NCBI GenBank assembly: GCA_038279365.1
Contig: JAYODI010000001.1
Coordinates: 118,127 to 182,126, forward strand
DNA length: 64,000 nucleotides
From: Candidatus Latescibacterota bacterium
GTDB taxonomy: Bacteria; Latescibacterota; UBA2968
Direction: 5' to 3'
In this document: positions 42,001-48,000 of the stretch, piece after piece
Numbering within the stretch: the first letter of the stretch is position 1
How the letters are laid out: each line of letters begins with the position of its first letter
Program-made: the position numbers

Positions 42001-45000
42001 GAAGTGCTAAAAATTCAGGTGGTGGATGCAAAATAGGGGATGGTTTGAAGGAACGCAAGCAGGTTTCGGGCTTTGACCTTGACAGGGGGTAGGGTGATTC
42101 CGATATTCGATCACGTTATATTTAACGTGAGATGGTTCTGTCTTTAAAAGAAAATTCAAAATGTTTTTTTATAGGTATAAAATTGGCAGCCTGATATCGT
42201 GTTATCGCGGTGTGAAAACTGTATATACGAAGTTGGGGTGTTTTGGGAAGGTTTGTGTATGAATCGGCGTGATTTTGTCAAAAGGGCAGCTATGGTGACG
42301 GGGGCGATGATGGTGTCACCTTCTGTATTTGCAGATGCGGAGATGGATATGACCGGAAAAATTATGACGGCCACGGGGGCAATTGATCCTAAAAAAATGG
42401 GCTTTGTGCTGACACATGAACATATTTTGGTGGACTTCATTGGCGCCGATGAGGTAAGCAAAGACCGCTATGATGAAGATGAAGCTTTTCATGTCATTTT
42501 GCCCTATTTGGAACAGGCCAAAAAATTGGGCTGCCAGACATTTGTGGAGTGTACCCCTTCGTATATTGGAAAAGATGCGGCATTGGTACAGCGGTTGTCA
42601 CGGGCAACGGGCCTGTATATGCTTACCAACACAGGGTATTATGGTGCGGCAAATGATAAGTATGTGCCTGCACACGCTTATGAAGAAACCGAAGATGAAT
42701 TATCTGATCGATGGGTAATGGAATGGGAAGAGGGCATTGAAGGCACCGATGTGCGCCCTGGGTTTATTAAGATAGGTGTGGATCGAGAATCTTTGTCGGA
42801 AATTGATGAAAAGCTGGTGCGTGCGGCGGCCAGAACCCATTTGCGAACAGGTTTAACGATTATGTCGCACACGGGATATGGCATACCCGCCCACGAAGAA
42901 ATTGCCGTATTAAAAGAAGAAGGTGTGGATGCGCGTGCTTGGATTTGGACACATGCCCAAAATGAACAGGACAATGAACTGCACAAAAAAGCCGCCCAGG
43001 CGGGTGCTTGGATTGCATTTGATGGCGTGAATGCAAACGAGAAACGTTTGGCACGTGATGTGACCCATTTGAAAGCGATGAAGCAATATGGTTTGTTGGA
43101 TCACGTTTTGTTGTCTCACGATGCGGGATGGTATCGCCCTGGCGAACCCAACGGGGGCAATTTTCGGCCATTTGTTGATTTGTTTGAGACGGTTTTGCCG
43201 GCATTAAAAAAGAACGGTTTTACACAAAAAGAAATTGATTTGATGACATTGGAAAATCCACAGCGTGCATTTGCAATTGGTGTGAGGGAGATTTAGTATG
43301 GCAGATCGAAAAAAGATTGCGGCAATTGTCACGGCCTATTATCCACGCTCACATGCAGATGTGGTGGTCACCAAGTTTTTAAAAGGTTTTCCTACAGACG
43401 AGGGATTGTTACCCCCCGAAGTGGATATTGTGTCCATGTATTTGGATCAGGTTCACGAGCGTGATATTGGGCGTGAAACAGCCAAAGATTTTGGTGTGCC
43501 CATTTATGAGAGTATTCCCCAAGCGTTGACATTGGGGGGGAAAGAATTGGCCGTAGATGGGGTGCTTATTATTGGTGAACACGGTGATTATGCTTGGAAT
43601 GAAAAAGAGCAACATTTGTATCCGCGCAAGTTTTTCTTTGAGCAGGTGTGTGGTGTGTTTGCAACATCGGGGCGCTCTGTGCCCGTGTTCACTGACAAGC
43701 ATTTGTCGTATAATTGGCCTGACGCAAAATGGATGTACGATCGTGCAAAAGCATTGCAGGTGCCCTTTATGGCTGGGTCGTCTGTGCCTTTGGCCTGGCG
43801 CAAACCTTGGATTGAATACGATTTGGGCGTTGAAATAGACGAGGCTTTGTCAGTGTCTTATGGCGGTTTGGATTCGTATGGGTTTCATGCTTTGGAAGCT
43901 TTGCAGTGTATGGTTGAACGTCGAAGAGGTGATGAGACGGGCATTGTTGCAGTGCAATGTTTAGAAGGCGATGCTGTGTGGGCGTCTGATGGGTGGGATC
44001 GCGCCCTTTTTGATGCAGCTATTAAACATGTGGAAACAAAAGAAGATGGAGACGTTAATACACGGTGTGAAAATCCGGCATTGTTTGTCATGGAATATGC
44101 CGATGGTCTTAAAACATCTACGCTGATGTTAAATGGGTTTATGAAAGGTTGGGGGTATGCGGCAAAACGCAATGGGAAAGTGGAAGGCATGCGTATTCTT
44201 TTGCCCGATAATCCGCATAGCCATTTTAGTTATTTGAGTTTAAATATTCAGCACATGTTTTTGACTGGCAAACCCCAATATCCTGTCGAGCGAACATTGT
44301 TGATTACAGGTGCCTTAGAAGCGCTTCTGGATTCTCGTTATCAGGGCCATGTGCGTATCGAGACGCCACATTTGAATATTGCCTATCGGTCTTATGACAC
44401 CCTGCCCATACGGTCTCAAAATGAAGATCCTGTTGGTGCAAGTTTGGTACCCTTTCATTAAAATTCAATATAGGTATTGTGATATATGCTTGACTGTGTC
44501 GAGAACCCAGAAAAAGAACGGTCTTATACGATTGAATTTGAGACATCGGAATTTACCGCATTGTATGCAAAGACGGGGCAACCCATTTTTGCGACACTTG
44601 AAATTTCGTATATACCACAAGACAAATGTCTTGAACAAATGTCATTGAAGCAATTTTTAAAATCTTTTCGAGATGAAAAAGTGTATTACGAAGGTGTGAT
44701 CAATCAGATATTAGATGCTTTGATCGCTGCTTGTGACCCCGTAGAGTTAAAGGTGGTTGGGCATTTTACGGTAAGAGGAGGTATTACAACAAAGGTGACT
44801 GCAGGCTATGTGGGAGGGGTGCGATGAGCCGTGCGAGAGATTTGCTGGAAGCGTTTGAAAATCCAAATCCTGAACGATCGTATACCATAGAATTTACCTA
44901 TCCTGAGTTTACGTCGCTGTGTCCCAAAACTGGTGAACCCGATTTTGCAACCATTGTGATTCGATATATTCCTGGCCCGCGGTGTGTCGAATTACGATCT

Positions 45001-48000
45001 TTGAAGCATTATTATTGGTCTTATCGCAATCAGGGCATTTATATGGAGCCTGTGACCAATCAGATTTTGGATGATTTGGTTGCTGTGTGTGATCCTGTGG
45101 AAATGACGGTGATCAGTCGGTTTAATATTCGCGGTGCTGTGGATCATGAAATTACGGCATCGTATCAAAAAGGATAAATTTGTTACAGGTCTCAGGGCAG
45201 TGACTTGTGACGTGCAGACCTGTGACTGTTTTTCATAAGAGGGATATATGAAACTTTTAAAAGAGTTGTGTGAATGTTCGGGCATTCCGGGGCGTGAGGA
45301 TCGTTTGCGTAAGGTGGTGGGGCGTGAGTTGAAAGCTTTAGCAGACGATATGCGTGTGGATGGTTTGGGTAATTTGATTGTGAAAAAGGGCGCAAGCAAA
45401 GGGAAAAAACCTAAAAAGCTGATGTTGGCGGCACACATGGATGAAATCGGTTTTGTGGTGTCACATATTGACAATAAGGGGTTGTTGCGTTTGGTGCCTA
45501 TGGGTGGGCATGATCCGCGCAATATGGTTTCTCAGCGCGTGACGGTTGCTGGTATCAAAAAAGATTTTACGGGTTTGATGTATCCTGGGGTCAAACCACC
45601 TCATATTCAAACCGATGCAGAGCGCAATAAATCGTTGAGTATTGGCGATTTTTTTGTGGATTTGTATATGCCCGTAGAGCAGGTAAAAAAAGAAATTGAG
45701 TTGGGAGCGATGGTCACTTTGCAGCGCGATTTTGCCGAAATTGGTGAGGGTGTAAGTTGTAAAGCGATGGATGATCGCTTGGCTGTTTATGTGATGATTG
45801 AAGCGATGAAGATGGCCAAATCGTTTGCTTTTGAGACTTATGCGGTAGCAACCGTGCAAGAAGAAATTGGTTTGCGAGGTGCCGTGTCCAGTGCATATGG
45901 TGTGGACCCTGATGTGGGGGTGGCATTGGATGTGACTTTGGCGGCAGACATTCCAGGTGTGCCAGAACATGAATATGTGACGCAGTTGGGCAATGGCACT
46001 GCGATCAAGATTCAAGATTCAAGCACCATATCCCATCCTGGTTTGGTGGCTCACATGAAGGCTTTGGCCACACGTCGTAAAATTCCTTTTCAGATGGAGA
46101 TTTTGCCGCGAGGTGGCACAGATGCAGGGGGTATTCAACGGGCGCGTGCTGGGGTGCCAGTAATTACGCTTTCGATTCCCACGCGATATGTGCATACCTC
46201 TATTGAGTTGGCAGATAAAAAAGATATTCAGGCAACCATTAAATTGTTGGCCGCATTTTTGGAAGATGGGCACCGAGCAGATATGGATTTGGTATGAACC
46301 AATTAAAAGTTAAAAATGAAAAATTTAAAAATATTGTCTTGTGGATGGCTTTCTGTTTTGCGCTCATTATTTTTAATTTTTCATTTGTATCAGCACAAGA
46401 TCGCCCTGCTCGTGTTTTGTTGGATTGTCGAGAAGGTATTGGTCTGTTTCCCAATATGTGGCGTGGTATGACGTTACAAACGGGTGATCGGCCCGAGCAA
46501 CTGAACTTGCATACCGTATGTTTGGGGCCAGAACCCGTTGCCCACGCGTGGACGATGAGACGACGTGGGGGGAGCTATGACTGGGGGCCATTGGATCGTG
46601 CTTTGGCGGCATTAAAACGCCATCGGGCAGATGTGGTTTTGGTGTTGCCTGTGCCGCTTTATGAAGATGTGCATTGGACGGAATTGGTCGTTGAAACCGT
46701 GCGTCATGTGGGGCGTCAGGTGTCTTTGTTTGAATTTCGAGCAGCACCAGAAACAGATTTTGAGCGGTATTTGGGTTTTTATGAAGCGGGTGTTTGGGCC
46801 GTGCACCAATTGGGTATGAATGTGCGTGTTGGTGGCCCAGGCTTAGATTGGACGAGTGAAAATGTGACAGCATTTATACAACGTTGTGCCATACGAAAAC
46901 TGCCCTTACATGTGGTCACCTGGCATGTTGCGGTTCAAGAGGCAGATGATATGCGCCGTTCCATTGATTACATCAATCAACAGACGTCTCAATATCCTGT
47001 AAGTCGCATGCCCAGCCGTTTAATTACGGGTTGGGATGCAAAAAAAAGTGATTTTGGCCAAGGAATGTCGGCACTGATGCGTGCGATGACCACAGATGTT
47101 GAGGCGATCTGTTTGGCCGATACATCCGATGTGGCTGGGTGGTCGGCACTAAAGGGGTTGGCTCCTCTTTCGGGGGTAAGGGTGCCCGTGGTGATTCAGG
47201 CTCCCGATGGTGGCGTATCGGGGGCAGCGCATTTACATCACGACACAATACTGGCTGTTTTTTGGCATGGACGTGAAGATGGCAATACACCTATTACGGC
47301 CACATTTAGTGGGCTTCTTTTGGGAGATCGTATTCGTGTGGAGCAACTCAGGTTGACGGGCGATCAAGGGCATATGAAACCCGTATTTTCTGAAACCCGC
47401 CCTTTTCAGGAGCCGCTTTCGGTTCATTTTAACCTAACGGGAGATGCCGTAAGGGCTGTGCGGTTGGTGGTAGAATGAGTCTTGATGGGAGTGATTATTA
47501 AGGATGAATGCTTATGCCTGAGCGAGTTGCTCAGGCTTTTTTGTATCAAATTGGGCGATGAGCATGCCTGCAAGCATGAGGCCACATCCGAAACCTTCGC
47601 GAGCAGTTAAGGTTTCATGAAGGACTGCCCAACCTGCTAAGGCCGCAAAGACAGCTTCGAGGCTAAAGATGATTGCGGCATGTGTTTCGGGTGTGTGCTT
47701 TTGGGCATAAATTTGAAGTGTGAAGGCAATGGCGGCGGAGAAGATGCCACTGTAAACGATAGATGTGGTGGCACCTTGAAGATGAGCGAGTGAGATGGTT
47801 TCTGTGAAAAGTGCCATTGTGAAGCTCAAACAGGCACAGATCCCAAATTGTAGAGTGGCCAAGTGGAATACATTATGATGGGGAGCCACACGTCCTACGA
47901 ATAGGATATGTAAGGCCCAAAAAAATGCCCCAATGAAAACCAATAGGTCACCATATGAAAAGGTGAAGTCACCACGAATGCTGAGAAAATACAGCCCCAC

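Follow-up and report, generated by a model that had tools for sequence, protein, structure and literature searches.

Two overlapping queF genes stand in tandem on the forward strand of the 64,000-nucleotide stretch of a Candidatus Latescibacterota contig analysed here (the window). Judged by its sequence, the upstream copy (A) is a conserved pseudo-enzyme, as the genome-wide survey's note had claimed, and is under purifying selection; the downstream copy (B) has the makeup of a complete unimodular QueF. The explanation that we favor, with a probability of about 0.45, is that A and B form a QueF hetero-oligomer in which A plays a non-catalytic part. We infer that the two chains co-assemble; their stoichiometry and the reason why A is kept are guesses. 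No biological nitrile reductase other than QueF is known to us. Two QueF architectures have been described, both as homo-oligomers (PMC13740343, PMC5372742), and a pair of live and dead QueF subunits was not found in the QueF literature searched.

The tandem pair reported by the survey was recovered as two open reading frames, both scoring above the QueF-II cut-off of TIGR03139 (86.9 bits) and both containing the motifs that had been quoted (Table 1). The spacing of the ribosome site (GGAGG 6 nt ahead of the B start) and the start/stop overlap suggest that A and B are translationally coupled. In the window, no queuosine genes adjoin the pair (for the other loci the comparison was limited to clustering), and no Rfam match was obtained at the gathering threshold between positions 40000 and 48000. 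RNA runs contained 9-13% of words and yielded one 181-base contig inside A; since DNA in the RNA library may account for this, we make no claim of A expression.

Table 1. Features of the A-B queF pair (positions along the window).
Feature	Position	Strand	Remark
queF copy A	44486..44827	+	113 aa; predicted catalytically dead paralog, T-fold intact; TIGR03139 125.5 bits
A Val5 = B. subtilis Phe33	44498..44500	+	substrate stacking, motif face; lost; Phe in 2/46 A vs 47/47 B
A Tyr27 = catalytic Cys55	44564..44566	+	lost; alignment to 4F8B; non-Cys 46/46
A Ile34 = catalytic Asp62	44585..44587	+	lost; non-Asp 45/46
A Met52 = QueF-motif Lys80	44639..44641	+	lost; Met or Val in 47/47 A
A Glu69 = substrate-anchoring Glu97	44690..44692	+	kept; 46/47
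A Arg-Gly-Gly = Arg125-Gly126-Gly127	44774..44782	+	kept; 46/46
GGAGG ribosome site within the end of A, with ATGA start/stop overlap	44813..44827	+	sequence; ATGA at 44824-44827
queF copy B	44824..45177	+	117 aa; complete unimodular QueF by residues; TIGR03139 161.5 bits; aligned to 4F8B
B Cys55	44920-44922	+	alignment to 4F8B, residue tallies
B Asp62	44941-44943	+	alignment to 4F8B, residue tallies
B QueF motif ELRSLKHY	44989-45012	+	alignment to 4F8B, residue tallies
B His130, lineage-specific	45145-45147	+	alignment to 4F8B, residue tallies

Copy B combines Cys55, Asp62 and Glu97 with the QueF motif within one T-fold and is thus predicted to be a unimodular enzyme (YkvM type; TIGR03139; B. 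subtilis homodecamer 4F8B), which it resembles in all catalytic and binding residues. Phe33, Glu78, Lys/Arg80, Tyr85, Cys55, Asp62 and Glu97 are kept in all 47 B copies, with Arg at position 80 in 29 of them; B differs from the known type by His130, a residue found in <1% of 145 other QueF domains. The surrounding preQ0/preQ1 pathway is ordinary: QueC was present in 52 and TGT in 53 of the 53 genomes of the order, and QueA, QueG and a PTPS-family gene in this genome, where QueE gave a match below the cut-off only. A second TGT was considered as a trait linked to the pair and rejected, as it is missing from the two largest pair-bearing genera.

Copy A shares with unimodular QueF the profile match and the single T-fold (AF2 model with pLDDT 92.9; TM 0.92-0.93 to B. 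subtilis QueF 4FGC/4F8B). The survey's note had described a Cys-to-Tyr exchange and loss of the catalytic Asp in every A copy. Loss of the Cys is general, but Tyr is not (41 of 46 copies covering the site, the others having Leu in two and His, Arg or Asn in one each), and Asp62 is retained in a single copy (G026). Retention of Glu97, also claimed, holds, alongside Thr58 and the Arg-Gly-Gly stretch, whose Arg125 we take to bind NADPH phosphates. Within the motif A retains Glu78 (46/47), Ser81, Lys83 and Tyr85 and lacks Lys80, the residue found at this position in 97% of the 145 other QueF domains; in V. cholerae QueF the equivalent Lys96 reportedly holds the 2'-phosphate of NADPH (PMC13740343). 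The lost Phe33 would correspond to V. cholerae Trp62 according to Table 2 of the same paper and the structure model, and position 95 varies among A copies, 17/47 having the Phe. By these tallies A has lost ligand-specific residues of both active-site faces. Interface residues N35, R40, E50, T52, P61, F63, P72, C76, L82, R90 and N101 are invariant across A copies, and all three self-assembly surfaces are conserved (mean conservation 0.78, 0.66 and 0.78 vs 0.61 elsewhere), with no one surface singled out. The dN/dS of A was 0.19-0.25 in two genera; between species of other genera dS was near saturation and dN 0.11-0.29.

Of the 53 genomes of one Ca. Latescibacterota order, 46 have copies A and B side by side, a count that replaces the 42 of 52 given in the survey's note. 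One further pair lies at the ends of two contigs (G029), five genomes (three genera) have only a B-type gene, which likewise carries His130, and the only genome of the 53 without any match is G024 (930 contigs). The genes overlap in 30 of the 46 pairs, the remainder being at most 128 bp apart (starts picked by script). A precedes B in 46/46 pairs, and the same order was seen in 8/8 cases with a Cys-less copy among 80 metagenome loci; wherever contig extent permitted, no Cys-less copy without a neighboring B was found in the order genomes or metagenome loci. On an RpoB tree of 25 genomes the pair/single state requires two changes: the pair was either lost twice or gained once and also transferred. 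As to the timing of the duplication, the QueF tree places A outside B and the single copies (support 98/94), yet in topology tests performed without the A copy of G026 and the fusion described below, neither A and B as a single clade (p-AU 0.39) nor a family-2 clade (0.115) was rejected.

Indirect evidence for co-assembly, which makes the heteromer plausible, came from a natural fusion and a complex model. P0004 (variant P0153) is a 304-aa protein with an A-type N-domain (HMM scores of 70.5 bits for A, 55.1 for the outgroup and 40.7 for B; in 40 control QueFs, A minus outgroup never came closer than -11.5) and a B-type C-domain that carries His130 (139.3 for B vs 132.0 bits for the outgroup). 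Its N-domain keeps Glu97 and the RGG stretch and has lost Glu78 and Lys80. Both domains sit on long tree branches, and the alignment-free fold was unusable (pLDDT 38.9). No source organism or DNA was found in viral contigs or JGI metagenomes, 0/23 phage records covered 80%, the Atlas gave no match of at least 0.9, and no further two-domain relatives appeared among 9 and 13 matches. The B3A2 model scored 0.73 vs 0.16 for the best control. The mark is reached by 116/157 solved pairs and 2/215 mismatched pairs, and the pass could reflect likeness to solved QueF decamers, as close cousins of true partners also pass. Runs shared at least 91% of contacts with a partner pLDDT of at least 81. In the best run, B residues 11, 20-28, 57-58 and 60-61 pair by strands with A residues 67-73 and 97-107, A Glu97 is placed in this interface, and both A copies lie head-to-head on a B.

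On the subunit reading, A would have arisen through tandem duplication and would be co-translated with B, which, going by its residues, would perform all preQ0-to-preQ1 chemistry in sites formed by two B subunits. A would join B via the conserved interfaces for strand pairing and head-to-head contact, for instance in mixed rings or with a ring rich in A opposite a ring of B, and might be retained since B now folds, assembles or lasts better with A. In favor of this are the completeness of B on both faces, the loss of ligand-specific residues from A with its interface residues kept in every copy, the selection on A and its constant position before B; C55A/S mutants retain the decamer (PMC13740343), and after duplication heteromers tend to displace homomers, benefit or not (PMC11066126). 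Against it stand the doubt about the model pass, the unlocated source and long branches of the fusion, and the five genomes in which the B enzyme type, being alone there with the same His130, needs no partner. A also keeps Glu97 and Glu78, beyond obvious scaffold needs, though Glu97 is modeled in the strand interface.

An unlikely variant is half-of-sites behavior fixed in the genes. The A face (Glu97, Thr58, Arg125-Gly-Gly) and the B motif face (Phe33, Glu78, Lys/Arg80) would together form a pocket without Cys. Lying opposite a live B site, on the other side of the head-to-head two-fold, this pocket would anchor NADPH by its adenosine-2'-phosphate end. Such a pocket would be short of Cys and Asp only and would match the modeled contacts of the best run and the residues kept and lost in the P0004 N-domain. 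NADPH binding persists in the E. coli variants C190A and D197H, each dimer binds one NADPH, and there is an adenine-in-pocket model of V. cholerae QueF, but for E. coli QueF that model is reportedly contradicted by native mass spectrometry (all PMC13740343), and the variable Phe95 of A also speaks against the proposed pocket. It is doubtful that the pair represents a QueF architecture of a third type that inverts the bimodular arrangement, namely a heteromer (once fused) with half its pockets only anchoring NADPH.

We consider it unlikely that A forms an oligomer of its own with a new role (a 7-deazaguanine or purine sink or sensor without reaction), beside B by shared origin and expression. 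The three conserved self-assembly surfaces, the kept Glu78 and Glu97, the conserved Tyr at the Cys position and the non-covalent substrate binding of E. coli C190A/S variants would fit, but the stacking residues are lost (Phe33) or variable (Phe95), no Cys-less copy lacked a neighboring B where the contig reached far enough, and the fusion ties the two domain types together. More improbable still is a role of A as a built-in damper, which would lower the number of active sites by taking places in the ring and so restrict preQ1 flux or NADPH consumption. With residues of both faces missing from A, the B sites to either side of it in a mixed ring would be poisoned; overlapping, coupled genes would however fix the ratio, a poor design for regulation, and the Rfam search of the locus was negative.

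The survey's note had taken the pair for a two-gene counterpart of bimodular QueF, with catalysis and NADPH binding divided between the copies, which we regard as very improbable. Bimodular QueF (YqcD type; TIGR03138; V. cholerae 3BP1) likewise has a Cys-less T-fold before a catalytic T-fold, by duplication, but in one chain, a fused form of which P0004 is also an example. A retains much of the motif, and such splits evolve, a complementary one existing in a genome of another class (G060). Such a split needs A to keep the motif face, as the bimodular N-module does, and B to lose it, as the motif-less C-module has; the opposite was observed. Lys80 of E-x-K-S-h-K-x-Y is present in 0/47 A copies and Phe33 is lost in 44/46, the A-type domain of the fusion is also without Glu78, and the B motif is intact in 47/47. 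The pair is thus a mirror image, the dead A losing Lys80/Phe33 and keeping Glu97/RGG and the live B keeping everything. Slow decay of a redundant duplicate, suggested by the faster divergence of A (mean identity 63% vs 77% for B) and its absence from five genomes, is largely refuted by the lack of internal stops in 47 matches from 8 genera and a dN/dS of about 0.2.

The archaeosine synthase QueF-L (5JYX; about 20% identity), a QueF paralog no longer using NADPH, requires the thioimide Cys and the Asp (PMC5485725). An amidinotransferase of this kind was rejected: A has neither residue and B keeps the NADPH motif. A works-like comparison, in an unrelated fold of the same pathway, is eukaryotic TGT, where a homo-oligomer gave way to a catalytic subunit (QTRT1) and a dead paralog (QTRT2) (PMC6165067); the heterodimer is experimental there and inferred for A-B.

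Chemistry and pathway are themselves ordinary. Single, paired, fused and independently split QueF forms are all met with in a single phylum or close to it. Because A, like B, scores above the QueF equivalog cut-off, it may easily be annotated as an active enzyme. A natural live/dead pair, unlike a homodecamer, allows each inter-subunit face to be changed separately, and it bears on the fixation of dead paralogs in ring enzymes and on the NADPH binding mode, left unsettled by a 2026 review (PMC13740343). If the anchoring pocket were true, half-of-sites behavior would be fixed in the genes and the disputed NADPH mode would become directly testable.

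Two queF genes, copy A and copy B, lie in tandem in the window (see table). They overlap in the tetranucleotide ATGA, and a GGAGG site precedes B by 6 nt. Both align gap-free to B. subtilis QueF, whose residue numbering is used throughout, and share 51% identity. The pair is flanked on one side by a phosphotriesterase-family gene and a 387-aa gene, for which a family match was sought and none found, and on the other by an M42 peptidase. The tandem arrangement described in the genome-wide survey's note is real: the frames overlap, both are recognised as unimodular QueF, and the pair is adjacent in 46 of the 53 genomes of the order, A preceding B in every one. 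The genes overlap in 30 of the 46 pairs, which suggests that A and B may be made at about 1:1. In G029, A and B stand at the ends of two contigs; five genomes (genera g7, g8 and g11) have one copy, of B type, and G024 gave no QueF match.

Coordinates of the tandem queF genes in the window
Feature	Position	Strand	Remarks
queF copy A	44486-44827	+	113 aa; passes unimodular QueF cut-off
queF copy B	44824-45177	+	117 aa; passes unimodular QueF cut-off

The queuosine pathway is in place: QueC is found in 52/53 and TGT in 53/53 order genomes, and the window's genome has QueA, QueG and a PTPS-family gene, with QueE matched below the cut-off only. On contig C160 of the same genome (L156:3995-7652), a second TGT-family gene, present in 16/53 order genomes, has an FmrO-family rRNA methyltransferase gene on one side and, one gene apart on the other, a QueE-like radical SAM gene. 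Two full-length QueC copies occur here (L157:6003-6677, L158:5885-6550), as in many other order genomes; in some, one copy sits inside an open frame of ~510 codons, perhaps a fusion or merely a long upstream frame.

Phe33, Cys55, Thr58, Asp62, Glu78, Lys/Arg80, Tyr85, Glu97, Arg125-Gly126 and His130 are kept in 47/47 B copies and 5/5 single copies. His130 (window 45145-45147) is lineage-specific, found in all 52 of these and in <1% elsewhere; it sits at a position lining the active site, and B and the singles are without His96. Among 47 A copies, two of them cut by contig ends, Cys55 is absent from all 46 that cover the site, Asp62 is present in 1/46, Lys80 in 0/47 and Phe33 in 2/46, and position 95 is variable. 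When A is compared with 145 QueF domains that carry Cys and Asp, its clearest losses at strongly conserved sites are Phe33, Cys55, Asp62, Lys80 and Phe95, together with Pro56 and Gly59 in the loop; interface residues are retained. A also keeps Thr58 and Arg125-Gly-Gly (46/46), Lys83 (47/47) and, as the survey had proposed for the glutamate, Glu97 (46/47, likewise Glu78). In excerpts of PMC13740343, substitutions of Cys55, and of Asp197 in E. coli, abolish activity, and on this established knowledge A is predicted to be dead as a reductase. The loss of catalytic residues claimed earlier holds, although the Cys-to-Tyr exchange is not universal (Tyr in 41/46). The predicted fold of A is that of QueF (pLDDT 92.9; TM 0.92-0.93 to 4FGC/4F8B). 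In one A copy (L034:1863-2210, G051), the first ~20 residues, including Phe33, are nearer to B copies than to other A copies, likely through gene conversion.

An A-B complex is likely. P0004, a 304-aa ENA/Logan protein found on 8 contigs (variant P0153 on 2), is a divergent protein with two QueF domains joined by a linker of ~40 residues. In the N-domain Glu97 and RGG are kept, and Cys, Asp, Glu78 and Lys80 are missing; the C-domain is complete, with His130. In profile scores the N-domain goes with A and the C-domain with B, beyond 40/40 random controls (A-profile matches <200 aa). A 51-row tree agrees (supports 99/99 and 98/94), but the branches concerned are 5.4 and 2.5 long and the model used tends to join long branches. 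Going by its protein sequence, P0004 is a natural fusion in which a dead A-type domain precedes a complete B-type one. Modelled as B3A2, the two proteins scored 0.73 against 0.16 for the best control, passing a mark reached by 116/157 solved complexes and 2/215 mismatched pairs, counts that are only rough for such a job; the pass may show likeness only, since QueF decamers are already solved. At least 91% of contacts agree between runs, with partner pLDDT of at least 81. The best run places B's motif face against the Glu97/RGG/last-strand face of A, and both predicted A copies contact a B via a symmetric surface of Glu50, Thr52, Pro61, Phe63 and Arg90, invariant in A; the contacts listed are those between A and B, and residues not named may still touch. 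Against an obligate role for A, five relatives do without it.

Over the readings together, a heteromer in some form is likely. The most likely reading, at roughly 45%, is that A would be a non-catalytic ring subunit kept through acquired dependence; stacked A and B rings would suit a 1:1 fusion, as a five-membered ring presumably cannot alternate. A rather doubtful second reading has a pocket between A and B anchor the adenosine end of NADPH. According to the excerpts of PMC13740343, one NADPH is bound per E. coli dimer, C190A and D197H leave NADPH binding unharmed and an adenine-in-pocket model exists, but mass-spectrometry data contradict that model. That A forms a separate homomer is unlikely, and that it acts as a damper slightly more so.

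The survey's model of a two-gene counterpart of bimodular QueF, with catalysis and NADPH binding split, is improbable. In bimodular QueF one module carries the motif and the other carries Cys and Glu (PMC5372742, PMC13740343), and the motif's Lys96 is reported to lie at the NADPH 2'-phosphate (excerpts of PMC13740343). Were A to complete B's sites, Phe33 would be expected to persist in A and the motif to relax in B; neither is seen, and Lys80 is missing from A. In contrast to bimodular QueF, A has lost the motif lysine and the stacking aromatic but retains the side with Glu97 and RGG, whereas B loses nothing, a pattern consistent with live sites formed by two B subunits. The real two-gene counterpart appears to be in G060, from another class of the phylum, where two paralogs 3.3 kb apart (L062:6976-7335 and L062:10628-10975) have complementary losses: one keeps Phe33 and ELKALKLY without Cys, Asp or RGG, the other Cys/Asp/Glu/RGG with a degenerate motif. 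The motif-only pattern is common to 2 of the best 120 homologues (P0192, P0193). Both modules of P0032, a two-domain QueF of 282 aa, match the unimodular profile, the N-module with ESKSLKLY and without Cys, the C-module with Cys and without the motif; it may be an intermediate or a separate origin of the bimodular type. The only family f3 genome examined (G089, L164) has a bimodular QueF in place of the unimodular type.

A is under selection: median dN/dS (Nei-Gojobori, over genome pairs that are not independent) is 0.25 (21 genomes, 210 pairs) and 0.19 (15 genomes, 105 pairs) for A, and 0.07 (195 pairs, 15 saturated left out) and 0.13 for B. That A is decaying is scarcely credible.

The A copies form one clade (support 98 in a quick tree of 118 rows, 99/99 in the 51-row tree). 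In the 16 loci compared, pairs and singles have flanking gene clusters in common, indicating a single locus in which A is present or absent. In an RpoB comparison of 25 genomes the singles fall into two lineages, one of them the sister of genera with the pair; either two losses or a gain and transfer would account for this. Patterns derived from 15 A copies, which can miss distant A forms, matched 37 loci in 185,579 species genomes: by record title 32 Latescibacterota/Latescibacteria, 3 Gemmatimonadota and 2 bacteria without phylum name. An A-profile search hit 4,608 cluster representatives; among the top 150 were 2 A-type single-domain proteins and 1 fusion. Of 561 metagenome loci, the top 80 included 8 with a Cys-less copy, each followed directly by a B-type gene. 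Searches of open PubMed Central and bioRxiv texts found neither a dead QueF paralog nor a QueF heteromer described, though supplementary sequence tables, e.g. those of PMC5372742, could contain such copies; the three 'hetero' occurrences in the excerpts of PMC13740343 do not concern subunits. A is lineage-restricted, and the A/B pair is a further variant of QueF organisation, inverse to the bimodular type.
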